A stretch of DNA of 26,737 nt, from positions 1 to 26,737 of the forward strand of contig JANOSY010000012.1 of assembly GCA_031416075.1 (NCBI GenBank). The letters run 5' to 3'. Of this stretch, positions 671 to 20,870 are shown one piece after another; the first letter of the stretch is position 1, and each line of letters starts with the position of its first letter. A program made the position numbers and the translations under genes. The notes under the pieces are model-generated. The model had not been told where the DNA came from and did not search any database. It saw only the letters and a program-made list of their open reading frames with translations. The DNA is from Candidatus Tenderia sp. (lineage in GTDB: Bacteria; Pseudomonadota; Gammaproteobacteria; Tenderiales; Tenderiaceae).

Positions 671-2209
671 TTATGCCGGTAGCAGTGTTTGTCCCCCCTT
701 TTCAGATTGGGGGATGCGGCCGTGACGCAGGTCAAGACGGCGGACAAATTCGCCCATGACGATCTGATAGAGTTTTTCTTTGAGGACGAGATCTTCTACC
801 CCCTGCTCCAAGCTCGGATTGTCGTTGACTTCAATGACATAGACACCTTGGGCGGTCTGTTTCATATCAACACCATACAGGCCATCGCCAATCAGGTTGG
901 CCGCTTTCAGGGCTGTTTCGACCACCTCTGGCGGCGCATCCTCCACCGCACAGGTTTTAAAACCGCCATGCACGGGGTTGCCGTCGTTGTCATACCGGAC
1001 AATCTGCCAATGTTTTTTGCTCATAAAGTATTGGCTGGCAAAAAAGGGTTTGCGGTTGAGTACACCTATACGCCAGTCAAACTCGGTATAGATATACTCC
1101 TGGGCCAGGATTAGCTCAGAACTCTTGAAGAGGCGGGCGGAGATCTCCCGCAGTTTTTCTGAACTCTCTGCTTTAAACACCCCACTGGAGAAGGCGCCGT
1201 CTGGTACTTTGAGCACAATCGGAAAACTGATCTGCTTTTCAGCGGCATCGAGATCATTTTTACCGATGATGATGGTCTTGGGGGTATTGATACGGTTGTT
1301 ACGCAGCAGCTCGGCCAGATAGACCTTGTTGGTGCAACGCATGATGGAGGTGGGATCGTCCATCACTACCATGCCTTCACTCTCGGCCTTTTTGGCAAAG
1401 CGGTAGGTGTAGTGGTTAATGTTGGTGGTAACACGGATAAAGAGCGCGTCATACTCCGCCAGACGTGAGTAGTCACGCTTTTCGATCAAATCGACATCAA
1501 CCCCCAGCTGTCGCCCCGCCTTGATGAAGAGCTGTAGCGCCTTTTTGTCAGACGGGGAGAGGGGGTCTTCCGGGTCGTGCAGGATGGCCAGATCGTAGCG
1601 GGCGGGCACACGGCTGCGCGGCTCACGCCACCGCTTTTTCAGGTAGTGGTTGAGTGCAGAGGTGAACTCCTCACGACTCTCTCCCTTCAGCTGGCGCACC
1701 GACTGTTGTTTGATGGCGCTGATATACCACTTGTCGAGCCGTTTAAAGGTCACTTTCAGCAGCGGTGCAGAGAAGGTCTCAAAGATCTGACGTGCCAGGC
1801 TGCTGAGCTCCTCATAACGGCAACGGCCAAAAAATATTTTAAACTCAAAGAGGGGGGCCGCCCCATCGGCACTGACCTCGGTGCTGTGGCTCTCACCATA
1901 TTTTTTGAACGCCTTCTGCACACTCTCGTCCAGAGTGGCGGCATCCAGGCTGTACATCGACTTGCTACTGAGGTCGAGCATACATTTAACCGTCGGGATA
2001 ATCCGGTGGTTACGGGCCTCGGCCAGCAGTGAGCAGTAGTAACCAACACTCAGATAGCGGTAGTCGTGGCAGAGGTTGATCACCTGGGCCCCCTTGAGCT
2101 TGCAGTAGTGCTCCGCCGTCAGGTAATCATCAATATCCACCACCGGGCACTCAACATCCGTAAAAATAGTGTTACTTGGATCTTCAGTCACAATGATCTG
2201 GGTGGTCAT
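671..2209 (-). CDS. RimK-family ATP-grasp ligase with N-terminal RLAN domain
   Basis: RLAN motif VINLCHDYRYLSVGYYCSLLAEAR; ATP-grasp motifs CTNKVYLAELL, FPIVLKVPDGAFSSGVFK, QEYIYTEFDWRIGVL, GLYGVDMK, VIEVNDNPS. Confidence 0.92.
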   Translation of the reverse strand: MTTQIIVTEDPSNTIFTDVECPVVDIDDYLTAEHYCKLKGAQVINLCHDYRYLSVGYYCSLLAEARNHRIIPTVKCMLDLSSKSMYSLDAATLDESVQKAFKKYGESHSTEVSADGAAPLFEFKIFFGRCRYEELSSLARQIFETFSAPLLKVTFKRLDKWYISAIKQQSVRQLKGESREEFTSALNHYLKKRWREPRSRVPARYDLAILHDPEDPLSPSDKKALQLFIKAGRQLGVDVDLIEKRDYSRLAEYDALFIRVTTNINHYTYRFAKKAESEGMVVMDDPTSIMRCTNKVYLAELLRNNRINTPKTIIIGKNDLDAAEKQISFPIVLKVPDGAFSSGVFKAESSEKLREISARLFKSSELILAQEYIYTEFDWRIGVLNRKPFFASQYFMSKKHWQIVRYDNDGNPVHGGFKTCAVEDAPPEVVETALKAANLIGDGLYGVDMKQTAQGVYVIEVNDNPSLEQGVEDLVLKEKLYQIVMGEFVRRLDLRHGRIPQSEKGGQTLLPA

Positions 2210-3345
2210 ATTGGCTCTCCATGGGTCGTGGCCACAATCTGTTGGCCCTTAGGGTAGATAATCAGTGCGGCGCGCTGGCCGCTTCTTCCGTAACGTGCCA
2301 TCTGCTCAAACTCGTGTTTCAGGATAGGCATATTGATGCAATCGGTAACACTCTTGCCTTTGTCTACATCCACAAATGAGTCATGTACATAGATAAACCG
2401 GTCGTCATAGCCGGTGACCACTACCCAGTGTGGAAACTTCTCCTTATATATACGATACGAACTGATCAAAATGACCGGTATCCCCCCGAGGGCCATTTTG
2501 CTGATCATCTCCGGCACCCGAATCGGGCGATAGTGAAGCGGGATCTGCGCCTGTTCGATCTCGGCAAGAAAATCCTCCTCCACCAGGCGCATCACCTCTT
2601 TTTTCTCCTCACTTCGCACACTGTCGACAAACATAGTGCCCAAATCGTTCACAAAAACCTCCAGCGGAAAATCGCGCTGGTAGGCGGACAGTGCCATGCC
2701 ATAGGGGCCACAGCCACCGTGTCCAGCCGTCATGAAGATGGTGGTGGCTTCGCGCCAGAGCCGTAGCTCCAGGCGTCGCCCCAATACCAGGGAGTCGTCC
2801 ACCGTCTTCATCGCCATCATCAAGGTGGCCGGACCGCAGGTGAACTCCAGTGTTTGTTGATAGTAGGGAACATGGGCAAGGCTCTGCTCCAGATTGGCGA
2901 CCAAGCGCTTCTCCATCCGCAGTGCGCTCATGTGATCTTCGTAGTAATCGGTATAGGTGCCAAACTCCCGATACCCCATGCCCTTAAAAAGCCCGATAGA
3001 GGCGTGGTTATCGGTACGGATCTCCAGCCGCATGGTGACGCAATCACGGGCGCGGGCCGCGTTTTCTGCTGCGTCGGTCAGCTGTCGACCCAGGCCGGAG
3101 CGGTGCAGGGCGGGGTCCACCGCAATGGAGTAGAGCCGCGCCAGCGAGGTGCCCCGGTGGAACAGCACCAGCACATAACCGGTCACACTGCCTTCGTCCT
3201 CTTCCAGCAGGGTGACTGCCTTACCCCTGGCAATGAGGTGGCGAAAATTGCGTCGCGACAGCCGGTCGCTCTCAAAACAGCGCTCTTCAAGCGCCACCAA
3301 GGCGTCGATATCCTCAAGCCTGGCATCACGAATCATGGCGGTCAC
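2206..3345 (-). CDS. GNAT (RimI-like) acetyltransferase fused to a peptidase C39-like domain
   Basis: N-terminal GNAT (LYSIAVDPALHRSGLGRQL, LEIRTDNHASIGLFKGMGY); C-terminal papain-like motifs YYQQTLEFTCGPA and PHWVVVTGYD...YVHD. Overlaps the ATP-grasp gene by 4 nt (ATGA), implying translational coupling. Confidence 0.9.
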   Translation of the reverse strand: MTAMIRDARLEDIDALVALEERCFESDRLSRRNFRHLIARGKAVTLLEEDEGSVTGYVLVLFHRGTSLARLYSIAVDPALHRSGLGRQLTDAAENAARARDCVTMRLEIRTDNHASIGLFKGMGYREFGTYTDYYEDHMSALRMEKRLVANLEQSLAHVPYYQQTLEFTCGPATLMMAMKTVDDSLVLGRRLELRLWREATTIFMTAGHGGCGPYGMALSAYQRDFPLEVFVNDLGTMFVDSVRSEEKKEVMRLVEEDFLAEIEQAQIPLHYRPIRVPEMISKMALGGIPVILISSYRIYKEKFPHWVVVTGYDDRFIYVHDSFVDVDKGKSVTDCINMPILKHEFEQMARYGRSGQRAALIIYPKGQQIVATTHGEPI

Positions 3346-3453
3346 AACTTGCTACCGATGGGGTCATATGCGGTTGACCTTAGCATGAGGCGCTCACTCC
3401 CAGCAGAAAATTTTCACTTGTATTACCGCCGTCGCCCTTTCATCATCTAGGAC

Positions 3454-4614
3454 ATGAAAACACACGCCCCCACACTCCTGAAAATGGTGCACGACCTGAT
3501 CGCCGTGCCATCGATGAGCAGCGTCAGCCCCGCCTTTGATTGCAGCAACCGCGCGGTTATCGACCTGCTGGCCGGCTGGCTTGAAGCCGAAGGGTTTCAA
3601 GTTGAGATCACGCCGCTGCCAACTCAACCGCACAAAGCCAATCTGATCGCCACCCTCGGTGAGGTGCGCCCCGACAGCGCCGGGCTGATGCTGGCAGGTC
3701 ACACCGACACCGTTCCCTACGACGCAGCGCTATGGCGCTTTGACCCGTTCAAACTGACCGAGGCCGACAACCGCCTCTACGGTCTTGGCACCTCCGACAT
3801 GAAGAGTTTTTTTGCCCTCGCCATCGAAGCAGCACGGCGTTTTAATGCCAAGGATCTAAAACAGCCGCTGGTCATTCTGGCCACCGCCGATGAAGAGAGC
3901 TCCATGGACGGCGCGATACTGGTCAGCGAACAGGGGTGTCCTTATGTGCGCCACGCCGTTATCGGCGAACCGACCAACCTGCGCCCGGTCAACGCCCACA
4001 AAGGCATCATGATGGAGGCGATCCGCCTCACCGGCCACAGCGGCCACTCCAGCGATCCGTCGTTGGGCATCAACGCCATCGACGCCATGCACAAAGTCAT
4101 CGGCGACATCAGCCAGTGGCGCGAAGAGCTGCAACGCAACAACCGTGACAACCGTTTTGCGGTAAGTGTGCCAACACTTAACCTCGGCCACATCCACGGC
4201 GGCGACAACCCCAACCGCATCTGCGGCGCTTGCGAACTACACTTCGATCTGCGGCCACTGCCGGGCATGGAACTGGAAGAGCTGCGTGGCATCCTGCGCC
4301 AGCGCCTTGATCGACTCTTTAATAACTCACCCGTCGGCTGGGAGCTATTCTCACTCTCCACCGGCACACCACCACTGCACACCAGAGCCGACGCTGCCAT
4401 CGTGCAGAGTAGTGAACTACTCACCCACCACACCTGCGAAGCCGTGCCCTTCTGCACCGAAGGCCCCTACCTCGCCAGCATCGGCATCGAATCCATTATC
4501 CTCGGTCCCGGCGACATCGCCCAGGCGCATCAACCGGATGAGTATCTGGCGCTTGATCGGTTAAAGCCGACACTGGATATTTTGGAAGGGTTGATTAAAA
4601 GGTTCTGTATGTAA
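3454..4614 (+). CDS. argE: Acetylornithine deacetylase (M20A family)
   Basis: LAGHTDTVP, YGLGTSDMK, ATADEES, IGEPT, GHSSDP, IHGGDNPNRIC, FCTEGPY, GPGDIAQAHQPDEY. Confidence 0.93.
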   Translation: MKTHAPTLLKMVHDLIAVPSMSSVSPAFDCSNRAVIDLLAGWLEAEGFQVEITPLPTQPHKANLIATLGEVRPDSAGLMLAGHTDTVPYDAALWRFDPFKLTEADNRLYGLGTSDMKSFFALAIEAARRFNAKDLKQPLVILATADEESSMDGAILVSEQGCPYVRHAVIGEPTNLRPVNAHKGIMMEAIRLTGHSGHSSDPSLGINAIDAMHKVIGDISQWREELQRNNRDNRFAVSVPTLNLGHIHGGDNPNRICGACELHFDLRPLPGMELEELRGILRQRLDRLFNNSPVGWELFSLSTGTPPLHTRADAAIVQSSELLTHHTCEAVPFCTEGPYLASIGIESIILGPGDIAQAHQPDEYLALDRLKPTLDILEGLIKRFCM

Positions 4615-4658
4615 TGTTTAGCGATCATCTGATTAGTACCAGCGTAGGCTGGATGAAA
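4609..4658 (+). repeat. Degenerate partial copy (copy 0) of the composite REP element
   Basis: ATGTAA..TAGC.ATCATCTGAT..GCGTAGGCTGGATGAAA aligns by eye with ATGTAAATAGCTACCATCTGAT..GCGTAGGATGGGTGAAA of copy 2. It overlaps the argE stop. Confidence 0.5.
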
Positions 4659-4677
4659 CAGAGTTAAATGATAGGTA

Positions 4678-5274
4678 ATGAAGATTGTATTTGATACTAG
4701 AGAGTACATAGAAAAAGCTTGGAATATAGCTGAAAAAATCAGTATTGACAGTGAAATTACCACCCAATTTAAAGGGGCAATGTTCTACTCTATTTTGAAC
4801 ATTTGCGATGCGATGCAAATGCTCATTCAAAAAAGAAACTTCGTGTCTGCCAATATACTGTTCCGTTCATTGCTTGAGTACGTATTTCGTTCATATTGGC
4901 TAAATAGAATCGCTGATAAAAACGAAATTGTCCTGGCAATGGAGAATGATAAGTGGCCAAAAACAAAAAAAATCCATGAATTAATCGCAGGAAAAAATTC
5001 GATAATTGATATTTTTGCGAGTGAGAAATCGAAAATCCAGGATATATTACACAGCTATATTCATGGTGGGTCACAAAACCCATTAGGTCAGTTGGGAGGT
5101 AGTGGACACATTGAACCAAACATTCCTGATTCAGAAGCATCGTACCTACTCCATGTAATTCAACTCAGCATCTACGTTGCGCTATCCGAAATGACGCACT
5201 TATCTGGATCAGATAAAATTGAAGCAGAAATAGTCAAAATTGTTGAGGAATTATTAGCCCGTAGGTCCGATTAG
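4678..5274 (+). CDS. AT-rich helical hypothetical protein, DUF6988/DUF5677-like
   Basis: Motifs SANILFRSLLE...W and LHSYIHGG resemble these families. Visibly lower GC than flanking genes. The C-terminal ARRSD* is encoded by the REP. Confidence 0.7.
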   Translation: MKIVFDTREYIEKAWNIAEKISIDSEITTQFKGAMFYSILNICDAMQMLIQKRNFVSANILFRSLLEYVFRSYWLNRIADKNEIVLAMENDKWPKTKKIHELIAGKNSIIDIFASEKSKIQDILHSYIHGGSQNPLGQLGGSGHIEPNIPDSEASYLLHVIQLSIYVALSEMTHLSGSDKIEAEIVKIVEELLARRSD

Positions 5275-5473
5275 CGCAGCGTAATCGGACGGATGTAAAT
5301 AGCTACCATCTGATAAAACTAATAGTGTGTAGGATGGGTAAAATGAAATGGACCCCATCAACACTGATGACAAAATATGAAAGGTGGGGGAGTATTGAAA
5401 TTCCATGGCCGATGGTTTTCGTGACTGATTTTTGGAGTGATGGGTTGCGCTGCTCTCCACCCATCCTACGGGC
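5257..5473 (+). repeat. Composite GTAG-REP element, copy 1 (REP-A hairpin plus inverted REP-B pair, REPIN-like)
   Basis: GTAG+GTCCGATTA-gcgcagcg-TAATCGGAC hairpin, then GTAGGATGGG..CCCATC and an inverted GATGGGTT..CCCATCCTAC. Outer ends GCCCGTAG / CTACGGGC are inverted repeats. Confidence 0.9.
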
Positions 5474-5696
5474 TGATGTTCGATCGGAAGGGGCGCCTCA
5501 GAAAATGCGCCCATTTCTGTAATCCGGTGAACCACATAACAAATACGTATCAATGAAATCCAGATTTTGTAAATCCGCCGGAGAGCGTGTATAAATCGTC
5601 AGGAAGGAAATGCCCCAGAGTTGGGTGTTTGATTGCCCCAGGTTGGGGTCCATTTAATGTTAGGCCTCAGATGACTTCCCTGGAACTCTCGATGCG

Positions 5697-6725
5697 ATGA
5701 AACGCAGACTTTATTTACGGCGGTACCGCGCTTCCGAAATTGCAGTGCCAGAACTTGCGAAGAGTTCAAGCGCCATTGACGTCACTCTCCAAAGACTTTC
5801 GCAAGCGGCTCAACTTGGGTTATTAGCACTGGCAGTGTTCGGGTATTTCTACACAGTGCTTCCGAGCTACCAATTGGCAAGGCTTACTGAGGAGTCCGTC
5901 AAGAAGGATACGGATATTCGTAGATCCGAAAATCGTCTCAAGGTAGCTAGGACGGAGCTACTAGCCATTGAGGAGCGATCTGCCGAGCTTACTCGTGGGC
6001 TGACCATTGAAATCTCTAGGCTGAATCAAGATATCCAAATTCGCAAGATTGACTTGCATAAGCAGACTCAGTTGCTTCAGGAACTCGCGCTTGAAGTAGA
6101 TACAGCGAGAGCGACTGCCAAGACAGCAGAAGCTCGAGCCAAGGTAGCCTTCGGTGAACTCGCAAGACTAGAGGCGGTGTCGAACACTCAGTATCTATTG
6201 ATGCTTACACAGCTCACGGCTGACGCACAATTGATGGGTAAGACTCTTTGCTCTCTCGAGATTGAAAGAGAGTTCTCGATTTCAAAGTGTCTTCGCGAGA
6301 AGGTGATATCCCTACAGGTATTTGATAGCCTTCGGCCAGAACACAAAGCACAGTTCCTACAGGCAGCGGAGCGTTCTGCCAATGGCGCTGAACTTGCTAC
6401 AAACGACCTAAAGCAGTTAGCAAAGGAGAGGCGTGACTACCTAAACTGGGTTCTACTAATCTCTCGTCCACTGTGTGAAACATTAGGCTCTTTACGGACT
6501 CCCAGCACTAAGGCGCGTGAGTCAACAGAAAAGACTTCGGAACCTAAAGGTGTCGGAGATTTATTCACAAGCATTATGCTCCCCGCCCTCTGCAACTTTC
6601 CTGAAGGCATGAAATCATTGCTCGAATTGGAGATTAGGGTCGCCCGAGGCCTAGCCACAACTAAAATACTTTCTAGGGAATTTGGTCAAATTGCAAACGG
6701 CTCACAGGCCCGTAGGTCCGATTAG
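5697..6725 (+). CDS. Hypothetical membrane-anchored coiled-coil protein
   Basis: Single hydrophobic segment LGLLALAVFGYFYTVLP followed by a long heptad-like helix. The C-terminal ARRSD* is encoded by the REP. Confidence 0.7.
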   Translation: MKRRLYLRRYRASEIAVPELAKSSSAIDVTLQRLSQAAQLGLLALAVFGYFYTVLPSYQLARLTEESVKKDTDIRRSENRLKVARTELLAIEERSAELTRGLTIEISRLNQDIQIRKIDLHKQTQLLQELALEVDTARATAKTAEARAKVAFGELARLEAVSNTQYLLMLTQLTADAQLMGKTLCSLEIEREFSISKCLREKVISLQVFDSLRPEHKAQFLQAAERSANGAELATNDLKQLAKERRDYLNWVLLISRPLCETLGSLRTPSTKARESTEKTSEPKGVGDLFTSIMLPALCNFPEGMKSLLELEIRVARGLATTKILSREFGQIANGSQARRSD

Positions 6726-6971
6726 CGCAGCGTAATCGGACGCATGTAAATAGCTACCATCTGATCAAACTAATAGCGCGTAGGATGGGTGAAATGAAAT
6801 GGAATCCATCAATACCAATGACAAAATATGAAAGGTGGATGAGGATTGAAATTCCATGGTCGATGGTTGTCTCGGCCGATTTTGGGAATGATGGGTTGCG
6901 CTGCTCTCCACCCCTCCTACGGGCTGCCCCTAGTGGGTGTGGGTGTGGGTGACAACCGGATAGGAAAGGTG
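6708..6971 (+). repeat. Composite GTAG-REP element, copy 2, with a 3' extension shared with copy 3
   Basis: 6708-6924 aligns with 5257-5473; 6925-6971 (CCCCTAGTGGGTGTGGGT..GACAACCGGATAGG.AAGGTG) recurs at 10481-10521. Confidence 0.9.
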
Positions 6972-7262
6972 GTTTCTTTTCAATTTGTCATGCCTCGTCG
7001 CGATTGCCCGGAAATGTTTGAGTTTGGCAAAGGCATTTTCAACCAGATGGCGGTAGTTATATAAACCCCCGTCCATCTCCGCATTGCCTTTCGTCGACTT
7101 ACGCCGTCTTGGGATGACGGCCACTGAGCCGTTGGCGCTGATCTGCTCTCGCTGCTTCTCGCTGTCATACCCCTTGTCGGCAACAACGGCGGTTGCGGCC
7201 GGGATTCTGGCGGTCAGCGCGGGCACCACCGTGAACGGCTGATATCCAGGCGTAACGGTCAC
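6972..7262 (-). pseudogene. IS5-family transposase C-terminal fragment
   Basis: VVADKGYDS and YNYRHLVENAFAKLKHFRAIATRHDKL are IS5 (IS427/IS1031-type) DDE motifs. The N-terminal half is missing and the 3' end abuts repeat copy 2. Confidence 0.85.
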
Positions 7263-7638
7263 TCAACGCGCTACGTTGAATTATCCAGCACGGCCCCGAT
7301 CATCCCAGGCCGTGACTCTTGGAAAGCGATGGCGAACACCAAAAAATATTTGGAGGATTTCGAAACTACATCCGTACCTTGATTTCCCGCCAAGCCAGTC
7401 TAGACTTGGCAGCTGTAGGGATACTCTTTCATGCCTGACAAGGACAACAAGACCACGGGCAGCCTCATCTCCTCATGCATCGTTGACAAGCTTACGGCCA
7501 CTGGCAATACCGCTGTGACTGATGTACCCACCCTTGAGTCCTATACTCTAAGATCGTGTTTGACCCCATCCACTACAGGCGAGCTGCGGGGAATCAAACC
7601 CGAAGACAAATTTAATTCTCACGCTCAGGGAGTGCTCC

Positions 7639-10350
7639 ATGTTAACCATTACCCGATACGCTGCTTCATTCATGACCATGCTGTTTTCGCTCGCCGCCGC
7701 TGCTTCTACCCCACCCGCACCTACGCTAGCCGAAGTCTCATCCAGGCTCGCCACCATGCAAGTGCCGTTTATACCCAACGGCGGACAGTGGGATAAACAA
7801 GCCGCGTTCGCAGCGCACACTTTTGCCGGAACACTGTTTGTCACTACCGAGGGCAAGCTGGTGTACAGCCTACCCGGCAAGCCCCAGGCAGATCAGTCTC
7901 AGCCAGATCAGCCCAAGATGAAGGGTTCCGCTGACAGAGGTACCGCTGACAGAGATAAAAACGCAGGCAAACACCTCCGCAAGCAAACCACCCCCGGCTG
8001 GGTGCTGACCGAAACTTTCATCGGCACTAACCACCAGCCGCTCGCGGTCAAGCCTGCGGGCTATCGTCCCGCGCAGGCCAAAGCCAGTTACATGATTGGT
8101 GCCAATAATCCCCAAGGCAGCCGCCATACAAAACCCCTCGATAGTTTTGAGCGGGTGCGTCTGGGCGAGGTGTTCAAGGGCGTGGAAGTTGAGTTACGCG
8201 CCACCGGCAGCAATGTCGAAAAAATCTTCACCGTCAAGCCGCACCAGGACCCCAAACAAATTCGCCTGCGTGTGGCGGGCGCAAACAAATTGGCGCTGGG
8301 CAAGCGCGGCGAACTGATCGTTCAGACCGGTAACGGGCCAGTCACCTACACCGCGCCGATTGCCTATCAGGAAGACGCGAACGGCAAGCGCAGCGAAATT
8401 AAAGTGGCTTATGCGCTCAACACCGCCACCCACAGCTATGGCTTTAAGGTGGGTGATTACAACCCCGGCCAGGCATTGGTAATTGATCCGCTGTTGCAAT
8501 CCACTTATCTGGGTGGCGCGGGGACTGATTTCGCTGCGGCTCTGGCCATTCACCCTGCCAGCGGTGACGTGTATGTGGCGGGCAGTACCGCCTCGACTGC
8601 CTTCCCTGGCACGGGCGGTGGGGCGCAGCCCGCCCAGGCTGGCGGCACTGAGGAGGGGGATGTTTTTGTCAGTCGCTTCAACGCCAGCCTCACGACGCTC
8701 GTGCAATCCACTTATCTGGGCGGTGCGGAGGATGACTACGTCAGCGCCCTTGCCATACACCCCACCAGCGGCGACGTGTATGTCGCGGGCAGTACCTATT
8801 CGTCCACCTTCCCCGGTACTGTCGGCGGCGCGCAGCCAGCCCATGTGGGTGACGCGGATGCCTTTGTCAGCCGCTTCAACGCCAGCCTCACGACGCTCGT
8901 GCAATCCACTTATCTGGGCGGCGCGGGGTATAACAACGCCTCCGCCCTTGCCATCCACCCCACCAGCGGCGAGGTGTATGTCGCGGGCAATACCGATTCG
9001 ACCACCTTCCCCGGCACGGGCGGCGGGGCGCAGCCAGCCTCTGCTGGTGGGTCTGTTCTCGGTGATGATGCCTTTATCAGCCGCTTCAACACCAGCCTCA
9101 CGACGCTCGTGCAATCCACTTATCTGGGCGGTGCGGGGAATGACTACGCCTGGGCACTTGCCATCCACCCCACCAGCGGCGAAGTGTATGTGGCGGGTGA
9201 GACAGGCTCGCCCATATTTCCCGCTACCCTGGGTGGGGCGCAGCCCGTCTATGCGTTGGGCGATGATGCCTTTGTTAGCCGTTTCAACGCCAGTCTCACG
9301 ATGCTCGCACAGTCCACTTATCTGGGGGGTGTGGTGAGCGACACCGCCTACGCCCTTGTGATTCACCCCACCAGCGGAGAGGTGTATGTGGCGGGGAATA
9401 CCGCATCGACCACATTCCCCGGCACCGCTGGCGGGGCGCAGCCAGCCCATGCTGGCGGTACTTTCCCTGAGGATGCCTTCGTCAGCCGCTTCAACACCAG
9501 TCTCACCATGCTCACGCAATCCACATATCTGGGCGGCGCGGGTGGTGATGCCGCCTACGCCCTTGCCATACACCCCACCAGCGGCGAGGTGTATGTGGCG
9601 GGTTCAACCGGCTCACCCACCTTCCCCGGTACCGCTGGCGGGGCTGGGGCGCAGGACTGTACGTTAATCAGCTGTACTAATGCCTTTATCAGCCGCTTCA
9701 ACACCAGTCTCACGACGCTCGCGCAATCCACTTATCTGGGCGGCTCGGAGAAGGATGCCGCCTACGCCCTTGCCATACACCCCGCCAGCGGAGATATGTA
9801 TGTTGCGGGTGGAACCAGTTCGACCATCTTTCCCGCCATCTCCGGTGGTGCGCAGACGGTTTACGCGGGGGGCACGAGCTTGGCTAGTAACGATGCCTTT
9901 GTCACTCGCATCTCACGCTCACTTGCCCTCGTTGACACCCCTGCATCGACTGTCCCCGGCGCGCCCGTGATCGGCACCGCCAGCGCAGGTAATGCCCAGG
10001 CCACCGTGAGCTTCACTGCCCCGGCCAGTAACGGCGGGTCGGCGATCACCAGCTACACTGTCACCTCATCCCCCGGCGGCATCACCGCCACCGGCGCGGC
10101 ATCGCCGATCACGGTGACGGGTCTGACCAACGGTACGGCCTACACGTTCACCGTAACAGCCAGCAACGCGGTAGGCCCGAGTGCGGCTTCGGGCGCTTCA
10201 AACAGCGTAATGCCCACCGCTGCCGAACCCGTTCCGACAAGCGATGGAGGCGGCGGCGGTGGCGGCAGCACTTCTGCATCCATGCTCCTGGCGCTGTCGG
10301 GGCTTTACTGGTGGCGCCGTCGCAGCAATAAATGTAGATGGGTGAAATGA
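7639..10350 (+). CDS. Secreted SBBP-repeat beta-propeller protein with FN3 domain and GlyGly-CTERM anchor
   Basis: GGAG RBS and signal peptide; F.PNGGQ N-terminal domain ending in LVIDP; seven QSTYLGG..A.ALAIHP.SG.VYVAG repeats; FN3 (PASNGGSAITSYTV..GLTNGTAYTFTVTA); GGGGGGGS-hydrophobic-WWRRR tail. Confidence 0.88.
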   Translation: MLTITRYAASFMTMLFSLAAAASTPPAPTLAEVSSRLATMQVPFIPNGGQWDKQAAFAAHTFAGTLFVTTEGKLVYSLPGKPQADQSQPDQPKMKGSADRGTADRDKNAGKHLRKQTTPGWVLTETFIGTNHQPLAVKPAGYRPAQAKASYMIGANNPQGSRHTKPLDSFERVRLGEVFKGVEVELRATGSNVEKIFTVKPHQDPKQIRLRVAGANKLALGKRGELIVQTGNGPVTYTAPIAYQEDANGKRSEIKVAYALNTATHSYGFKVGDYNPGQALVIDPLLQSTYLGGAGTDFAAALAIHPASGDVYVAGSTASTAFPGTGGGAQPAQAGGTEEGDVFVSRFNASLTTLVQSTYLGGAEDDYVSALAIHPTSGDVYVAGSTYSSTFPGTVGGAQPAHVGDADAFVSRFNASLTTLVQSTYLGGAGYNNASALAIHPTSGEVYVAGNTDSTTFPGTGGGAQPASAGGSVLGDDAFISRFNTSLTTLVQSTYLGGAGNDYAWALAIHPTSGEVYVAGETGSPIFPATLGGAQPVYALGDDAFVSRFNASLTMLAQSTYLGGVVSDTAYALVIHPTSGEVYVAGNTASTTFPGTAGGAQPAHAGGTFPEDAFVSRFNTSLTMLTQSTYLGGAGGDAAYALAIHPTSGEVYVAGSTGSPTFPGTAGGAGAQDCTLISCTNAFISRFNTSLTTLAQSTYLGGSEKDAAYALAIHPASGDMYVAGGTSSTIFPAISGGAQTVYAGGTSLASNDAFVTRISRSLALVDTPASTVPGAPVIGTASAGNAQATVSFTAPASNGGSAITSYTVTSSPGGITATGAASPITVTGLTNGTAYTFTVTASNAVGPSAASGASNSVMPTAAEPVPTSDGGGGGGGSTSASMLLALSGLYWWRRRSNKCRWVK
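8497..9915 (+). repeat. Seven intragenic tandem repeats of 198-210 bp
   Basis: CAATCCACTTATCTGGG-type units start at 8497, 8704, 8902, 9112, 9310, 9517 and 9724. Confidence 0.92.
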
Positions 10351-10521
10351 AATGGAACCCATCAATACTAATGACAAAATATGAAAGGTGGATGAGGATT
10401 GAAATTCCATGGTCGATGATGGTTGTCTCGGCCGATTTTGGGAATGATGGGTTGCGCTGGTCTCCACCCATCCTACGGGCTACCCCTAGTGGGTGTGGGT
10501 GACAACCGGATAGGCAAGGTG
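10334..10521 (+). repeat. Composite REP element, copy 3 (REP-B pair plus extension; lacks REP-A)
   Basis: Near-identical to 6780-6971; supplies the TGA stop of the SBBP gene. Confidence 0.9.
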
Positions 10522-10678
10522 ATTTTATCGCTGCCACGCCCACTGGCACGGCATAAGGACCGGCAAAAAATATTCAACCGTAAATACACCACTGACTGAT
10601 GACGGGAAGGCACCGAAGGCAGGGCCATACATTGAGTCACCGGCACTGCCCTTGGGGTGCCCTCCTTCGTGGGTGTTG

Positions 10679-11803
10679 TCAGTTTATATTGTAAATCTTA
10701 AAGGTAGTGAGTTTGAGTTCGACAGCCACTTTGTCGTTGCGCAACCACACCGTGAAGTCGTGGCCGGCGTCGTTTTTAACCATGCGCATCTCCAGTTGCA
10801 GCGGCTGGTTGTGGCTGCCGAGTTTTTTAAAGGCGGCGACTATTTCACCTTCGTTAAAATTCAGCGTCATTGAGCGCCCCCGAGCCCCGTTGGGCGGCAT
10901 CCAGATGTAACTCAACTCTTTGGGCACGGGGCGGGTAGTCGCGGCGAGGGCGGGGGCCAGTGGGGTGTAGAGATAGTCACTCTCGCCGTTGAAATAGGTG
11001 ATGTCCTCGATCAGCCCATCTTCCACCAACATCCCGGTAAACAGCGGCTGCCAGTGGTACTGCGTGCGGTAGCTCTCCCATAGACCGAAGGGAACGCCAT
11101 TTTTGAGCAGTGCCTCCAGGGCCTCCTGCTGTTTTTGCTCTTTCTGTGGACCCTCGATCATTTCGCCGTCGGGGGTGACGAAGGAATCGAGGATAACCAT
11201 GCGGATATACTGCTCCCGTGTGAGGCTCGTGGAACGAGTCACGATCTCCCAATCCTTCTCTACCTTCTCGGCGTGGCCAAAAAAGACCTCGGTGGTTTTA
11301 TCGATGCCCCTCAGCCACACCGCCACCGCACCGCCGGGGGCAACGCCAACGATAACGGTGCTGTAGGTGGTACGGCCATTGTCACTCTCTGTTTTCCAAT
11401 TAGCCTTTGAAGGGCTGTAGTACCCCTCTTTAAACAGTCTGAGGATCTTGTCATAGGGCAGCTCAAAGATGCCCTGATAAAACTGGTTTTCGGTGTAGGA
11501 GAAAAAGCTGATAGCCAGCCGGTTGGGCAGCGGCTTGCGGTCGGGCCCCACCACATGCCCGGAGACGCCCCGGCCCCAGCCGCCGTCGACTCTTCTGTGG
11601 TCCGGCACGGAGAGTCCCCCGCTGCCGTCATGATAAGCAAGGCTGCCGCCGATGAGATAGCTAGCATAGTTAAACGGCGCGCTTTCGCTGGCCTGCCAGT
11701 CAAACTTGTTTGTAAACCTGTCCATTTTTGCCCCTAAAGTACAGCCTGCCGTGGTTAAAAACAGGAGTGTCGATCCAATTGCCCAGCGCATAATTTTAGC
11801 CAT
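10679..11803 (-). CDS. DUF2931-family lipoprotein, putative Tle1 immunity protein
   Basis: Lipobox LTTAGC; LPNRLAISFFSYTENQFY and IVGVAPGGAVAVWL motifs; overlaps the 3' end of the Tle1 gene. Confidence 0.85.
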   Translation of the reverse strand: MAKIMRWAIGSTLLFLTTAGCTLGAKMDRFTNKFDWQASESAPFNYASYLIGGSLAYHDGSGGLSVPDHRRVDGGWGRGVSGHVVGPDRKPLPNRLAISFFSYTENQFYQGIFELPYDKILRLFKEGYYSPSKANWKTESDNGRTTYSTVIVGVAPGGAVAVWLRGIDKTTEVFFGHAEKVEKDWEIVTRSTSLTREQYIRMVILDSFVTPDGEMIEGPQKEQKQQEALEALLKNGVPFGLWESYRTQYHWQPLFTGMLVEDGLIEDITYFNGESDYLYTPLAPALAATTRPVPKELSYIWMPPNGARGRSMTLNFNEGEIVAAFKKLGSHNQPLQLEMRMVKNDAGHDFTVWLRNDKVAVELKLTTFKIYNIN

Positions 11804-13334
11804 CGTAGGTCATCCTGGTACGTTTGCCGCCGCTGATGCGTGGAGCATAGCCAGGCTCCATGCGGGCAGAGAAGTGTAGGTAGCGATGACGCAACTCGCG
11901 CAGCCAGGGTTCATTGTGGCGCCAGTCGCTGGCTCTGGATATATATGTGGAGGCGATATAGGCCTCAATCCGGTCCCGCACCTCATGCAACGGCTCTGGC
12001 ACCGCTTCATCTCTATCGAACTCTGGTATGAACAGAAGCCCCTTGTCACGGGCATGGCGGGCCATGATCTGCAGCGGAATCTGGCTGTAGCCATTGCCGA
12101 TGTTACTGCGCTCTGCCCGTAGCGCCCGGCGCTCGACAAGCTGTGGGCCCCCGCTTTCGGCGTGAATGTAATAGTCATTGTTTTCTATTTTTATCTCATC
12201 CTCCCCGCCCGGCACGCCAGCCCGATACCAGCCAGCGGCAATAAGCTGCTGCCTATCAGCCTCCATCTCCTGCAGGGAGAGATCGCTGCCCTGGAGCACA
12301 AAACCGATCAGGCCGACATTGCCAAGCAGGTAATTCTTTTCACTGCCGGCATCGCGGTAACCCCCCCCAATATCTGAATGCGAACCCGGCAGAAAAAACT
12401 GTTTGCCCTTGCCGCAGGCACTCTCGATCGTAGTGAGTGAAAAATGGAAGCGGTGTTCATCGGCAGCGGCCAGCTGCAGCGTCGCTTCGGCGTGGGCAAC
12501 GGCGTACAGGTGCAGCTCCTGGACGTTGTTGGCGATGCCGCGCCTGATATTATTCACCCCTTTAAGGTCAGAGGCGTAGGTGGAGACGGTGTCAAACAGC
12601 CCGGCAAAACAGATAGTGACCTTGATGACGGTGTAACCTTTAGCCTCCAGACGCGCCTGGAGACATCGCTCCTCATCCCCGCCACCAAACAGCAGTTCGT
12701 GAATAAGTTTACGCGCTGCGGCGGCGCCACGACTGAAGCCGTAGACCCCGATGACGATCTCGTCGATGATCAGACGCTTGCTCTTTTTGACCTGCTCGAT
12801 GATCTGTTTCATCATTTCGAGAATCCCTTTCTCCACCTTATCGAGAATGCCTGCGCGCCAGATCAGAATGGAGGTGCCCAGGGCGTAACCGGCCATTTCG
12901 TCACCCGCTAGATCCTCACTGCCCACCCCTTCGATGTAGGCTTTTAATCTATACTTATAATCACCACCAGCAGCGATGGCTTTCACATTACGTTCCATTC
13001 GGACGATATTGGTGTAATACCCTTCGTAGCTGTTTTCACTCTTGCTGGGCGGCGGCGCGCCATGTTTTTGATAGGCTTTGACGGCCGTCTGGCGCTGATC
13101 CGCTGACATCTTGCTTTGCAAATCCAGGGCGGCTTTGCGCTCTTCGTCCGTCAGGTACTGCTTATTGTCTAGCGCCTCTTTTTCCAGCATGGTCACCAGC
13201 CGCGCCTCGATGTTGCTGCGGTTGTTCAGGGTGCCGTCGTTGAAGATGTCAAAACGGATTTTAATGTGCTCTTTACCGTCGTTCTCCACCTCGGGTTCTG
13301 GTGGGGTGTAGGACGCTTCTCCTATCTGAGACAT
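11796..13334 (-). CDS. Tle1-like (DUF2235) phospholipase effector
   Basis: FNDGTLNN, YIEGVGS, GFSRG nucleophile elbow, GLFDTV, DEHRFHF and LPGSHSDIGGGY give a complete Ser-Asp-His set; AGGAG RBS upstream. Confidence 0.9.
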   Translation of the reverse strand: MSQIGEASYTPPEPEVENDGKEHIKIRFDIFNDGTLNNRSNIEARLVTMLEKEALDNKQYLTDEERKAALDLQSKMSADQRQTAVKAYQKHGAPPPSKSENSYEGYYTNIVRMERNVKAIAAGGDYKYRLKAYIEGVGSEDLAGDEMAGYALGTSILIWRAGILDKVEKGILEMMKQIIEQVKKSKRLIIDEIVIGVYGFSRGAAAARKLIHELLFGGGDEERCLQARLEAKGYTVIKVTICFAGLFDTVSTYASDLKGVNNIRRGIANNVQELHLYAVAHAEATLQLAAADEHRFHFSLTTIESACGKGKQFFLPGSHSDIGGGYRDAGSEKNYLLGNVGLIGFVLQGSDLSLQEMEADRQQLIAAGWYRAGVPGGEDEIKIENNDYYIHAESGGPQLVERRALRAERSNIGNGYSQIPLQIMARHARDKGLLFIPEFDRDEAVPEPLHEVRDRIEAYIASTYISRASDWRHNEPWLRELRHRYLHFSARMEPGYAPRISGGKRTRMTYDG

Positions 13335-13354
13335 CTCTGTCGCTCCTTAATCTG

Positions 13355-13957
13355 TTACTGAAGTTTTTGATTGCTGAACTGTTTGGCGGTCTCTTCATCA
13401 ACACTGACGGTCGTATCGATTCTCACATTGCTTAAAATCGGCGTGCCATATTTGGCCCAATTTTTATCCCAGGTTTTTACCGGGCTTTCAAAAATAAAGA
13501 CGTGGAGAGTATCTATGTCGGTACTGGCCATGATGAACTTGTGGACAATGATCGGCTTTTGTCCGGACGGGGCGTCTTTATACCTCAGAAATGTACGGTC
13601 GAAATAGCCGTCCGTATCCTGTTCAAGAAAAATTATCTTTTTTGTGCGTTCATTCAGGTGGGGATTCAGGTAGACATCAACCATCTGTTTTGCATCCACT
13701 CCGATAATCTTCTGCGTGTCGCGGATAACCTGAAGCGTAAATCCCATCTCAAATTGCTGGGTTTCAGAAAACCACTCGGGACTGGCGGAGTAGCTAGTGA
13801 CCGGAAAGGGGTTGCCGGTTTCAATACGCTCACGTTCGTACCACGATACTGGTTTGAGAAAGGTGGCATCGCCGTACAACTTCCATGCAAACCCCGCTGG
13901 CGGGGTGGACAGTTGCGACTGCGCCCTGACTGCTGCTTGAATGTAATCTTTATCCAT
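13355..13957 (-). CDS. Hypothetical protein, possibly PsbP/Mog1/DcrB-like fold
   Basis: GAGG RBS before ATG at 13957 (the ORF track starts at TTG 14005). FLKPVSWY near the N-terminus and HVFIFESP..WD..W...G.PILSNVRI at the C-terminus suggest the fold. Lies 20 nt upstream of the Tle1 gene. Confidence 0.65.
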   Translation of the reverse strand: MDKDYIQAAVRAQSQLSTPPAGFAWKLYGDATFLKPVSWYERERIETGNPFPVTSYSASPEWFSETQQFEMGFTLQVIRDTQKIIGVDAKQMVDVYLNPHLNERTKKIIFLEQDTDGYFDRTFLRYKDAPSGQKPIIVHKFIMASTDIDTLHVFIFESPVKTWDKNWAKYGTPILSNVRIDTTVSVDEETAKQFSNQKLQ

Positions 13958-14056
13958 TGTCCTCTCACTCCATCTGCCGTTACTTGACCGGATTGTAGCA
14001 AACAAGTCACATGGCGATTGTGGTCAGGATGGTTGGTGGTCACATCGCTGGCGGAA

Positions 14057-14119
14057 CCCGTAGGTCCGATTAGCCCTGCGTAATCGGACGCATGTAAAAT
14101 AGTCACCAGCTGATCAAAC
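14057..14119 (+). repeat. Composite REP element, copy 4 (REP-A plus linker) directly upstream of the RAYT stub
   Basis: CCCGTAG GTCCGATTA gccctgcg TAATCGGAC GCATGTAAAATAGTCACCAGCTGATCAAAC aligns with 6709-6770. Confidence 0.88.
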
Positions 14120-14135
14120 GAATGGAAAACGGCAT

Positions 14136-14204
14136 ATGCCCAACTATCGTCGCGCCTTTATTCCGGGCGGCACATGGTTCTTTACCGTTAATCTGTTGGA
14201 GTAA
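14136..14204 (+). pseudogene. REP-associated tyrosine transposase (RAYT/TnpA-REP) 5' remnant
   Basis: Translates as MPNYRRAFIPGGTWFFTVNLLE*, the characteristic RAYT N-terminus. Stop at codon 23 and no recognisable continuation. Absent from the ORF track. Confidence 0.85.
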
Positions 14205-14324
14205 CGTGGCAATTTCGCCGTTTTTGTAGCTTGAGAGGTTTTACTGTCCAGCGCCGTCATCCGTTGGTATGATCCTCCCACCTCACTTCTGAGGCTCATT
14301 AAGACAAGGTGTTAATGGAATAAC

Positions 14325-14870
14325 ATGGCGTCCCTTGCCCAGCTCACCCTTCGTACTCTTTTGTTGCCAGCGCTCATCCTCTTGAGCAGCGGTTGTAGCT
14401 TAATGCCTGACTATCCGGCGCGCTATATTGAAGCACCGATGACTCCGGAGGGAGTGGAGGAGCCAGAGGAGGTCGCGGTGAGTGGTGATGAGCAGGCCCC
14501 AAACAGGCTGCTGGCCCGACTCTATAAACAGCATGATGAGTGGCGTGGGGTGAAATACAGAATGGGTGGCATGAGCAAAAGTGGCACTGATTGCTCCGGT
14601 TTTGTGAAGCTGACATTTGCCTCTCTGTTTGATCTTGAGCTGCCACGTAGCACCCATCAACAGGTCAAGGCGGGTATTGATGTGAATGTTGCTGATTTGC
14701 AGAGTGGCGATCTAGTCTTTTTTAAAATCAATAAACGGACGCAGCACGTCGGCATCTATCTTGAGGAGAGCAAATTTCTGCACGCCTCCACCAGTCGTGG
14801 TGTGATGGTCTCCAGCATGACACACCCCTACTGGCAGAGCCGTTATTGGAAATCGGTTCGGGTTAGCTAA
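14325..14870 (+). CDS. NlpC/P60 lipoprotein (MepS/NlpC-like endopeptidase)
   Basis: Lipobox LSSGC; WRGVKYRMGG, DCSGFV, LPRST, GDLVFF, HVGIY, FLHASTSRGV. Confidence 0.93.
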   Translation: MASLAQLTLRTLLLPALILLSSGCSLMPDYPARYIEAPMTPEGVEEPEEVAVSGDEQAPNRLLARLYKQHDEWRGVKYRMGGMSKSGTDCSGFVKLTFASLFDLELPRSTHQQVKAGIDVNVADLQSGDLVFFKINKRTQHVGIYLEESKFLHASTSRGVMVSSMTHPYWQSRYWKSVRVS

Positions 14871-14894
14871 ACTTTTTAGGTGCTCTATTGTGAT

Positions 14895-14930
14895 AAAAGG
14901 CCACTCCGGCGTACGTTGGGGTGGCCTTTT
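14895..14930 (+). terminator. Rho-independent terminator, potentially bidirectional
   Basis: AAAAGGCCACTCC..GGGGTGGCCTTTT hairpin 24 nt after the NlpC stop. Confidence 0.75.
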
Positions 14931-15077
14931 GGTTGTTAGCACGGGCAGTGGCATTACCCCACTGTTGGACTAGTATTAAAGTGTGTGGGGTTTTCGGGAG
15001 GGGATGGCTGCCCTTCACTAATGGTGATGGTGGGCCGATAGCCTAAGTGAGGATGTGGAAAACCGAGGAGAGCAATC

Positions 15078-15254
15078 ATGAGAGATTCATTTATCAGTTC
15101 AACGGACCATCAACACCCAGGTAAGGAAGAGTGCTGCGACCTTTATGGTGAGTATTGCTACCCCTGTCATGCCCCTGCTGTGACCGTAACGGACAAAGAG
15201 AAGCAGAAAAAGCAGCGCAAAAGCGCGCCAGTGACGCCAGCCAAAAACAGCTAA
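15078..15254 (+). CDS. Small Cys-rich protein (58 aa) with a CxxCH motif
   Basis: GAGGAG RBS; MRDSFISSTDHQHPGKEECCDLYGEYCYPCHAPAVTVTDKEKQKKQRKSAPVTPAKNS*. Fills the intergenic gap and falls below the ORF-track cutoff. Confidence 0.55.
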   Translation: MRDSFISSTDHQHPGKEECCDLYGEYCYPCHAPAVTVTDKEKQKKQRKSAPVTPAKNS

Positions 15255-15304
15255 CAGGCTGATAGATATCTAATTCTGGCTACGAGCTGCCGGGGTTTAC
15301 TTAC

Positions 15305-19510: not shown

Positions 19511-20650
19511 TTATTTGTGAATAGTTATTTGATCTTTTTCCCTTGAGGCAAATCCCAGCGCTTCGATCCCGGCCCAGTCGCGGCTCTTGGTGGCGGGGGA
19601 TAGGACAGAATAGAGTGCTCGGTACCAGCGTTGTGTATTGAGTTTATGCATGGAGACCGTTTTTGTCCGCTGCGCCCCCAGGTATTCGAGGATTTCGTGT
19701 TGCCGGGCATTGATCTTTTTTTCGCGCAGCAGATCGCCCAGGTAGGCGAGGGCCAACATCTGACCGGCAATTTGGCTGGCGCGCTCATGAATGCGCTCAA
19801 TGGTATCGGTCATGCCTAGCAGGGCGAACTTGATGAATGGCTCATTGCAGCTCTCCGGTGTTGACTTTTCAGCTTTCCGGCACTGGTTGAAGAGTGTGTA
19901 GTAGTCGTCGATGTGGTCCAGATAGTACTTATCCAGGCCGCGTGCCCAGCCGCGATAACCGGCGTGCATGAGTACCGCCTTCTCCAACAGGCGACCAATG
20001 CGACCATTGCCATCATTAAATGGATGGATGCGTTCGAAGTAGTAGTGGAGCAGTGCTGCGCGGATGTAGGCTGGAACAGTCGCCATCTCTTCGGATGAGT
20101 TCCACTGCGTTAGTGCCTGCATCAGCATTGCAATGTCACTCCGAGCTTGAGGCGGTTTGTAGGTGCCGCCATGGGCTTGATCCCCCACGTTGGTTGTTAT
20201 GCCTGGTGGATTGTCACGATAGAGGCCGGGTTGGTAGTCGCTGTCTGTCAGGCCGGTGGTCGCCATAATGTGGAGTTGGCGCATCAGCGCCTCGGTGATG
20301 GGGAGTGCGGCGGCATCCTTGAAGGAGGTCACATATTGATCCAGGTATTCATAGGCCTTGACCAGATTGGCGATACGCAATTCCCGGTTATCGCTGGCCG
20401 CATCGGCGTTCTCGATCAGATCAGACGCCTCTTCGTCAGTGATATCTCCCCCTTCGATGGTATCGGTGCTGGTTACGCCACTGACCAGTACATCCTTTTC
20501 CAGTTTGGCGGCAATACGTGAATAGGCGGGCAGCCGGGTGAGCATCCGGTGGCCAAGTTCAATCTGGCTGGTATACGCCTGAAGGGTGTTTAGGGCAAAG
20601 CCCAGTTGAAAGGTGAAGGGGCCTGAACTAAACGTCTCTATTTTCAGCAT
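19511..20650 (-). CDS. Fic-family protein with N-terminal inhibitory motif (class II) and possible C-terminal winged helix
   Basis: Canonical HPFNDGNGRIGR; (S/T)xxxEG-type motif STDTIEG; tail INARQHEIL..SPATKSRD resembles an HTH. Confidence 0.9.
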   Translation of the reverse strand: MLKIETFSSGPFTFQLGFALNTLQAYTSQIELGHRMLTRLPAYSRIAAKLEKDVLVSGVTSTDTIEGGDITDEEASDLIENADAASDNRELRIANLVKAYEYLDQYVTSFKDAAALPITEALMRQLHIMATTGLTDSDYQPGLYRDNPPGITTNVGDQAHGGTYKPPQARSDIAMLMQALTQWNSSEEMATVPAYIRAALLHYYFERIHPFNDGNGRIGRLLEKAVLMHAGYRGWARGLDKYYLDHIDDYYTLFNQCRKAEKSTPESCNEPFIKFALLGMTDTIERIHERASQIAGQMLALAYLGDLLREKKINARQHEILEYLGAQRTKTVSMHKLNTQRWYRALYSVLSPATKSRDWAGIEALGFASREKDQITIHK

Positions 20651-20651
20651 T

Positions 20652-20743
20652 TGAAAGCCCTGTGAAATTTATATGAAACCTTTATGAAAATGATATTTCA
20701 TTTAAAACATTGGGTTACATGTAACTTTATTTTTTCATGAAAA
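20652..20743. promoter_or_regulatory. Putative operator array upstream of fic
   Basis: TGAAA at 20652, 20663, 20674 and 20685 (exact 11-bp phase), inverted TTTCA at 20696; palindromes GTTACATGTAAC (20714) and TTTTCATGAAAA (20732). Confidence 0.45.
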
Positions 20744-20779
20744 CAGAATTGAAGAGTATTGCATGTGTTTGAAATAGTC

Positions 20780-20823
20780 AAAAAATCGCGGTGGTGGGTT
20801 GGCAATCACTCCTAACCCACCAT
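20780..20823 (-). terminator. Terminator-like hairpin downstream of the duplicated tex end
   Basis: TGGTGGGTT(GG)..(CCT)AACCCACCA stem with a T-tract on the minus strand (AAAAAA at 20780-20785 on +). Confidence 0.5.
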
Positions 20824-20833
20824 ATTTTTGGTA

Positions 20834-20870
20834 TTAATGCTTCAAATTTGCAAACGCCGCCACCGACTCC
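20834..20870 (-). repeat. Decayed direct-repeat copy of the tex 3' end (att-like)
   Basis: Encodes ESVAAFANLKH* versus [13 protein letters not shown] of tex. ATTTGCAAACGCCGC is identical at 20846-20860 and 24166-24180, followed by CCGACTCC after a 6-bp gap. Confidence 0.75.

Follow-up and report, generated by a model that had tools for sequence, protein, structure and literature searches.

The window analysed here, a 26,737-nt stretch of DNA from Candidatus Tenderia sp. (contig JANOSY010000012.1), appears to be an entire contig. Our subject is a 9.6-kb interval between argE and an NlpC/P60 peptidase gene (nlpC), in which composite units of repetitive extragenic palindromic (REP) sequences, linked to the remnant of a REP-associated tyrosine transposase (RAYT) gene and all in one orientation, separate unrelated accessory genes. 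An earlier note on this DNA had described the interval in these terms, and repeat matches and domain searches agree with it; profile searches likewise recovered the module contents that it gave (a DUF6988-like gene, an IS5 fragment with an SBBP gene, and a Tle1 set). Exact and near-exact searches of the window identified two families of hairpin with a GTAG foot, REP-A and REP-B, the second of which occurs as a left arm (REP-B1) and an inverted right arm (REP-B2). The interval and its flanks contain the following features.

3454-4614, plus strand: argE, acetylornithine deacetylase, left flank (NCBIfam PRK05111, 535 bits, residues 1-386).
4619-4658, plus strand: putative degenerate relic of the composite, identified by alignment score, at the point where argE-argA synteny breaks.
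4678-5274, plus strand: DUF6988/DUF5677 gene (Pfam), module 1.
5257-5475, plus strand: composite copy 1, with REP-A (5261-5290), spacer, REP-B1 (5329-5360) and inverted REP-B2 (5439-5469).
5697-6725, plus strand: gene for a 342-aa protein with no Pfam family, module 2.
6708-6975, plus strand: composite copy 2, the long copy, with REP-A (6712-6741), REP-B1 (6780-6811) and inverted REP-B2 (6890-6920).
About 6976-7262, minus strand: internal fragment of an IS5-family transposase (NCBIfam NF033580, positions 169-247 of 258; Pfam DDE_Tnp_1).
7639-10350, plus strand: surface protein with DUF7948, SBBP beta-propeller repeats, fn3 and a GlyGly-CTERM-like tail, module 3.
10334-10525, plus strand: copy 3, an inverted REP-B1/REP-B2 pair with extension, without REP-A.
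10679-11803, minus strand: DUF2931 protein (PF11153, 5e-24), module 4.
11796-13334, minus strand: Tle1-like DUF2235 phospholipase (PF09994, 1e-16), module 4.
13355-14005, minus strand: 216-aa open reading frame (ORF) with no family, module 4.
14057-14123, plus strand: REP-A (14060-14089) and spacer, flanking the RAYT stub on its 5' side; homologue of composite nt 1-67.
14136-14204, plus strand: RAYT (TnpAREP) remnant, 22 codons followed by a stop (PDB 4ER8 match).
14325-14870, plus strand: NlpC/P60 peptidase gene, right flank (Pfam NLPC_P60, 3e-33).

REP-A consists of GTAG followed by a 9-bp stem with an 8-nt loop (n = 3), and its matches at 5261, 6712 and 14060 all lie on the plus strand (0 expected; 100 shuffles). 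REP-B has a stem of 7-9 bp and occurs as three inverted copies (5439-5469, 6890-6920 and 10446-10476; 0 expected in shuffled sequence) together with degenerate direct arms, the REP-B1 arm lying about 77 nt to the left of each inverted copy. The full mosaic runs in the order REP-A, 38-nt spacer, REP-B1, 77-nt linker and inverted REP-B2, from GCCCGTAGG at its left end to CCTACGGGC at its right end, and the inverted pair has 32-nt arms separated by 77 nt. When folded as single-stranded DNA, the composite forms a small REP-A hairpin and one long imperfect hairpin in which both REP-B arms pair (z = -2.1 over the whole 281 nt). The repeat family is that of a GTAG-class REP, a palindrome with GTAG at its 5' foot sited just downstream of ORFs, and the REP-B pair is that of a REPIN (a REP doublet forming a hairpin), in which inverted REPs can form one long hairpin. 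REP copies lie 3' of argE, the DUF6988 gene, the 342-aa gene and the SBBP gene, each with a co-directional or convergent gene on its other side, and three of them overlap the final codons.

Pairwise local alignment was used to compare the copies. Copy 1 and the corresponding part of copy 2 (5257-5475 versus 6708-6926) are identical at 197 of 219 positions (90.0%). The right extension of copy 2 (6927-6975) is also present in copy 3, and 6780-6975 aligns with 10334-10525 at 182 of 199 positions when gaps are included (91.5%, two small indels), or at 95-96% identity in ungapped blocks. Copy 3 begins exactly at the GTAG of REP-B1, and the term free-standing REP-B doublet suits it better than broken composite. 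The element at 14057-14123 is 87-90% identical to copies 1 and 2, with 60 of 67 positions shared with 6709-6774. The leftmost element aligns with 6751-6794 at 33 of 45 positions; its score of 30 exceeds the maximum of 2000 mononucleotide shuffles (28) and that of 1242 other 81-nt windows taken from the two strands of the contig (25), consistent with a weak copy in which the spacer and the GTAG foot of REP-B1 persist in degenerate form. Of the five same-orientation copies reported earlier, all are indeed on the plus strand, but the one placed at 4609 reduces to this 40-nt relic, and three of the five are partial.

In three copies, whose left flanks are unrelated, the REP side of the junction falls on exactly the same nucleotide. 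The same TAG of REP-A serves as the stop of both the DUF6988 gene and the 342-aa gene, and the SBBP gene stops inside REP-B1. Homologues of the DUF6988 protein (n = 14, 61-78% identity) mostly end in ...EELVGEKII; the window protein ends in ...EELL-ARRSD, its last five codons and stop (ARRSD and stop) being encoded by REP-A instead of the native ...GEKII and stop. For the 342-aa protein, a 97%-identical homologue (P0001) on another contig, of 2.8 kb, ends in ...GSQVKR, against ...GSQ-ARRSD in the window, and the two diverge exactly at the first REP-A codon, the native ...VKR tail and stop having been replaced. The displaced tails of both genes were not found after the composite, and a simple insertion of the REP unit into the two gene ends was therefore rejected. 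Because native codons are replaced at the same REP-A position in two genes, the REP-A foot is a real recombination, insertion or deletion junction, more than a neighbour. Whichever of its three frames is read, REP-A reaches a stop within nine codons, which would make such fusions tolerable. The claim that every module ends at a GTAG foot holds for three of the four modules; the Tle1 module lies on the other strand, with its 5' end facing REP-A at a distance of 51 nt. At argE, the C-terminus is intact, with relatives aligning to residue 386 and the stop lying 4 nt before the repeat relic.

Junctions of this kind could be made by an assembler that read across a dispersed repeat and so joined segments which are neighbours in no genome. 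It fits this idea that the window is apparently a whole metagenomic contig, the longest on record for its DUF6988 protein having the same 26,737 nt, and that every join between segments of unlike composition falls within a repeat. We consider such an artefact quite improbable. The copies differ by 4-13%, and their longest shared exact runs measure only 18-49 nt, less than the k-mer sizes with which common metagenome assemblers finish. Four contigs on record encode the identical DUF6988 protein, REP-encoded tail included, and a repeat-mediated misjoin cannot create the unique-to-repeat junctions on the left.

The modules differ in build as well as in content. Module 1 comprises one tightly packed ORF, the gene of module 2 is preceded by a 221-nt leader, module 3 contains debris of an insertion sequence (IS), and module 4 consists of three genes on the opposite strand. 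Their GC contents are 35.5%, 48.5%, 60.2% and 54.2%, respectively, and those of the flanks 54.8% and 56.6%, so that only modules 1 and 2 are clearly foreign in composition, and modules 3 and 4 resemble the flanks. The IS5 fragment of module 3 adjoins composite copy 2 and is missing both IS ends.

As the earlier note had proposed, the last repeat runs into a RAYT remnant. The element at 14057-14123 leads to an ATG at 14136, 46 nt downstream of the REP-A end (14089), and the stub that begins there matches residues 1-20 of Escherichia coli TnpAREP (PDB 4ER8; E = 3e-5). A tblastn search with K-12 RayT matched residues 1-27 only, through a stop, and nothing else in the window; neither the HUH motif nor the region of the catalytic tyrosine was found anywhere in it. 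The local RAYT is thus dead and the 3' part of its locus deleted; no GTAG hairpin lies in the gap from the stub to nlpC. Since the RAYT gene's own 5' flank makes up the first 67 nt of the composite, the unit as a whole has the look of a REPtron end (in E. coli, yafL-rayT-lfhA) that lost its RAYT and was joined to a REP-B doublet. We also searched relatives, using an ArgE-seeded scan of genome contigs with 10-kb flanks (592 confirmed, 80 loci kept). No RAYT N-terminus was found in the 80 loci, and the E. coli RayT query gave one weak IS200-like match (L065) and no intact RAYT.

The stub lies directly 5' of the NlpC/P60 gene (together 14136-14870). In E. coli K-12 (L083, 1213-2635), rayT lies directly downstream of yafL, whose product also belongs to the NlpC/P60 family; the two NlpC/P60 proteins are 32% identical over 113 aa, and the shared neighbourhood may be a coincidence.

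With these data, we weighed a new mechanism in which RAYT bound to REP-A would cleave single-stranded DNA near the hairpin and transfer the strand to unrelated DNA, stacking fragments like cassettes. The common REP-side junction nucleotide, the two cargo genes cut a few codons short, and module 1 as a tight 597-nt insert with an 18-nt leader would all be accounted for. According to excerpts of Ton-Hoang et al. (PMC3333891), E. coli TnpAREP needs a GTAG REP for binding, cleaves C|T sites of loose specificity within a span of more than 400 nt around a bacterial interspersed mosaic element (BIME), and carries out strand transfer in vitro; by analogy, this makes RAYT-made rearrangements next to a REP chemically plausible. 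Capture by RAYT is nonetheless highly improbable here, with a dead local enzyme and, bar the weak L065 match, no intact RAYT in the window or the 80 loci. Deletions at the hairpin foot could yield the same junctions, and the three opposite-strand genes of module 4 and the IS debris of module 3 are ill suited to cassettes. Moreover, no report of REP- or RAYT-bounded gene cassettes or of cargo capture was found in the literature covered, which left aside supplementary files and subscription journals. A C|T pattern at the repeat ends, considered as a sign of RAYT cleavage, was too weak and was rejected.

To place the interval in its genomic context, we compared the argE neighbourhoods of relatives. 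The closest ArgE is 69% identical (best of 592). Among nine of the closest loci, scanned by Pfam, eight have argA directly 3' of argE (one of the eight, L016, with a short ORF in between); Dam usually follows, as does a ptsP-like gene, the latter in six of the nine. None of argA, Dam or the ptsP-like gene was found within 22 kb in the window, and neither nlpC nor any other window gene lies downstream of argE in any of the 80 kept loci. Because the argA block of relatives is absent, the argE stop, where the relic lies, is a synteny break relative to family-level relatives, and the space between argE and nlpC is no demonstrated conserved slot.

The argE-argA arrangement was seen in L001, L002, L005, L006, L014, L016, L022 and L023, usually followed by genes for a Dam-type methyltransferase, an EAL/HDOD protein and a GAF-PtsP protein, a block that the window lacks altogether. 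On the other side of argE, the window carries divergent genes for a RimK-like ATP-grasp protein (RLAN domain) and a GNAT-DUF3335 protein (C39-like peptidase; window 671-4614 with argE); 13 of the 80 loci likewise have a rimK-like gene, a DUF3335 gene or both on the upstream side of argE, among them L002, L006, L015, L016 and L021.

REP copies were counted in the window and in the relatives' argE neighbourhoods. Under a strict criterion (GTAG, stem of at least 8 bp, at most one mismatch, score of at least 8), the window has four matches, three of them inside the 9.6-kb interval; the fourth (26680) is the only one in the remaining 17 kb and is unrelated to the repeat family. The same criterion gave 36 matches in 1,266,763 nt of relatives' neighbourhoods. 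In a looser scan for GTAG hairpins, six of eight window matches fell inside the interval. A fuzzy search with REP-A, REP-B, REP-B1 and the spacer as queries returned a single match from 1.29 Mb of relatives' loci, a REP-A-like hairpin with compensatory stem changes (L050:7219). A REP-B-like hairpin was also observed 3' of a rimK-like gene (L002:7168), as was a cluster of three GTAG hairpins (L020:19238-19815). The GTAG hairpin class of REP is widespread in these Gammaproteobacteria. Among plasmids, blastn with the composite found nothing beyond 35 nt resembling REP-A in an Aeromonas caviae record, and a 54-aa reading frame of the composite, used as bait, had no match among the 29-95-aa proteins of the protein collection. 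No Rfam family was found in the window at the gathering threshold, and no tRNA genes were found there.

Most of the features that could be read as hallmarks of cassettes are published general properties of REPs and REPtrons, as excerpts of several papers indicate. A position no more than 20 bp from an upstream stop codon is one such property; Di Nocera et al. (PMC3733652) place most REPs of REP-rich genomes between ORFs that are unidirectional or convergent, and 260 of 496 E. coli REPs are within 15 nt of a stop codon (PMC12306157, quoting an earlier study). RAYT genes are flanked by REPs (Loper et al., PMC3390384; Ton-Hoang et al., PMC3333891). In E. coli, the number of BIMEs beside tnpAREP is variable, IS-mediated rearrangements occur, and tnpAREP has been lost by precise deletion or replaced, along with its BIMEs, by hicAB (PMC3333891). 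Orthology of only one flank was found for 29% of REPINs and ascribed to insertions or rearrangements (REPORTH preprint, bioRxiv 10.1101/2024.10.14.618302). REPs are described as IS targets in the title of a further paper (PMC1525189), which fits the IS5 fragment adjoining copy 2.

Taken together, we favour, at a probability of roughly 55%, a decayed REPtron/BIME cluster in a rearranged, accessory-rich region of a gammaproteobacterial chromosome, and not a dedicated cassette system. The repeated unit would be an ordinary GTAG-class REP mosaic, made of a REP-A hairpin, a RAYT 5' leader and a REPIN-like inverted REP-B pair. Following this logic, the units would have multiplied locally during RAYT activity, or through unequal recombination. 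The foreign genes would have come by unrelated routes, such as IS insertion into REPs and illegitimate or flank-homology recombination. Deletions with one end at a hairpin foot would then have trimmed the DNA to what selection tolerated, the REP-A stop in every frame making such fusions harmless. At present, the hairpins most likely act only as RNA or DNA structures at 3' ends, and the 190-220-nt direct repeats may serve as substrates for occasional RecA-mediated deletion.

Three sets of observations weigh against a decayed cluster. First, all three strict hairpins of the repeat family lie in the 9.6-kb interval, whereas REPs are normally depleted from horizontally acquired regions, the 'REP deserts' of Loper et al. 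(PMC3390384), so a REP-dense island is unusual unless the adjacent REPtron explains it. Second, modules 2 and 3 are each bracketed by direct repeats of 190-220 nt at 90-96% identity (219 nt, 90%, for module 2; about 192 nt, 91.5% with gaps, for module 3), the footprint expected of a Campbell-type insertion. Third, two independent genes have lost three to five native codons and are fused at the identical REP-A nucleotide and in the same frame; the shared frame by itself has one chance in three of being an accident. The identical fusions point to a joining or deletion process specific to the REP foot.

The second set would follow if the composites were a platform for REP-REP homologous recombination. 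On this account, 190-270-nt composites would provide portable homology, RecA-dependent crossover into a resident composite would integrate circular or linear DNA carrying a composite, the reverse reaction would lose modules, and an array in one orientation would build up. Besides the bracketing, the uniform orientation of the copies, the distinct GC of modules 1 and 2, and the occurrence elsewhere of a close module-2 homologue whose 3' end differs are what such a platform would produce. It would need a donor with the same lineage-specific composite, yet none was seen in the 1.29 Mb of relatives, plasmids yielded only the 35-nt REP-A-like match, and no called ORF of the composite was found in the protein collection. 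Crossover yields two whole copies, yet the partial copies end at different internal points, and the trimmed gene tails would be left unexplained. We therefore regard a recombination platform as unlikely, if still worth carrying as an alternative.

The third set is the one result that goes beyond the ordinary, and it keeps REP-mediated exchange alive at low probability. In its strongest form, the REP-A foot would be a site-specific joining point, used by RAYT or by a hairpin-processing nuclease, at which pieces of foreign DNA the size of a gene, cut a few codons before their stops, are fused to a REP unit; the unit would contribute a 3' hairpin and a stop codon whatever the frame. Through repeated rounds, units would pile up in one orientation, giving a REP-based analogue of an integron array, caught after the death of its enzyme. 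We consider this improbable; REP-mediated exchange of modules in a broader sense is possible.

If the decayed-cluster reading is true, the locus is a worked example of REPtron decay; it shows REP mosaics coming to mark the seams of an accessory region, and demonstrates that genes can have their final codons overwritten by REP units. REP/RAYT systems are currently viewed as vertically inherited, self-contained repeats. If the REP foot actively joins foreign DNA, they would gain a role in gene acquisition, and with it a new route of genome plasticity in many Proteobacteria.

The accessory genes themselves include a candidate effector set. In module 4, the genes for the Tle1-like DUF2235 phospholipase and the adjacent DUF2931 protein overlap, and DUF2235-DUF2931 adjacency is also present in an annotated Ewingella plasmid; by domain content, the pair would qualify as a Tle1 effector-immunity module of a type VI secretion system (T6SS), with the DUF2931 protein the likely immunity protein. 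No vgrG or T6SS core genes were found in the window. The DUF2931 protein has 374 aa with the Pfam match at residues 32-196, and the Ewingella plasmid has four tandem DUF2931 genes of about 220 aa; the window protein may be a fused or extended immunity protein. The 216-aa ORF of module 4 has no family by Pfam, is 'hypothetical' in an atlas look-up, and was ruled out as a DUF2931 paralogue. The 342-aa protein of module 2, which has a strongly conserved hydrophobic segment, was likewise without a Pfam family and 'hypothetical' in the atlas. Within the SBBP gene of module 3, seven coding repeats of 198-210 nt (61-79% identity) span 8489-9978.

Other loci of the window lie to the right of nlpC. A small cysteine-rich ORF (15079-15255, about 58 aa), seen from sequence only, occupies the 434-nt convergent gap between nlpC and a Methyltransf_28 gene, preceded by a strong terminator-like hairpin at about 14890-14935. 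The gene at 17351-19453 encodes a 700-aa TPR protein with a family-41 glycosyltransferase (O-GlcNAc transferase-like) domain (1e-85). At 19511-24099 there is a second accessory-looking cluster, encoding a Fic protein, a MarR-like/HATPase/DUF4325 (STAS-like) protein and a DUF4062-TPR protein with six 120-nt tandem repeats; it could be a defence or signalling island. No REP copies were found in it.

Several known systems resemble the interval in part. Like integron arrays and clusters of attC sites lacking an integrase (CALINs), it shows unrelated genes followed at their 3' ends by imperfect palindromes that all share one orientation, and module 1 is a single tight ORF; Vibrio VCR arrays are integron cassette arrays of this kind. 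In contrast to these, the palindromes of the window are GTAG-class REPs, gene ends are truncated, and the modules include a three-gene opposite-strand operon, IS debris and a 221-nt leader. No IntI or other recombinase domain was found among the 18 large ORFs of the window, and no paired RYYYAAC/GTTRRRY sites 40-130 nt apart occur on either strand in 4400-14400, where a stray GTTRRRY lies near one of ten boundaries. An integron was rejected on these two grounds. Of the integron-like locus accreting genes by RAYT activity or REP-REP recombination that the earlier note had proposed, the description stands; the mechanism finds no direct support in a locus with a 22-codon RAYT stub, no integrase and no attC-type site.

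In Neisseria, the NIME (Neisseria intergenic mosaic element)/dRS3 arrays and the 'minimal mobile elements' are also cases in which short repeats between genes punctuate variable segments that exchange by recombination, but the repeat family is different and has no RAYT link. The interval also resembles REPs that act as IS targets or rearrangement points, in that the IS5 fragment adjoins copy 2 and a repeat relic lies at the argE synteny break; the IS5 element differs in being an internal fragment without ends, so that its insertion into the REP is conjectural.

The closest parallels are REP systems themselves. As in REPINs and BIMEs, REP-B1 and REP-B2 make an inverted pair, with a 77-nt gap, that can fold into one long imperfect hairpin, and the composite mixes two REP types with linkers; the left arm of the window unit, however, is degenerate, and the unit also carries the RAYT leader. 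Compared with the E. coli REPtron, the window has only 22 RAYT codons, where an intact RAYT has an HUH motif and a catalytic tyrosine, and no REP on the 3' side; some 9 kb of unrelated genes are interleaved among its repeat units, and the order relative to NlpC/P60 is reversed. The two nevertheless share a recognisable RAYT N-terminus, a GTAG REP just upstream of its start, additional REP mosaics nearby, and an NlpC/P60 neighbour of RAYT, as yafL is in K-12.

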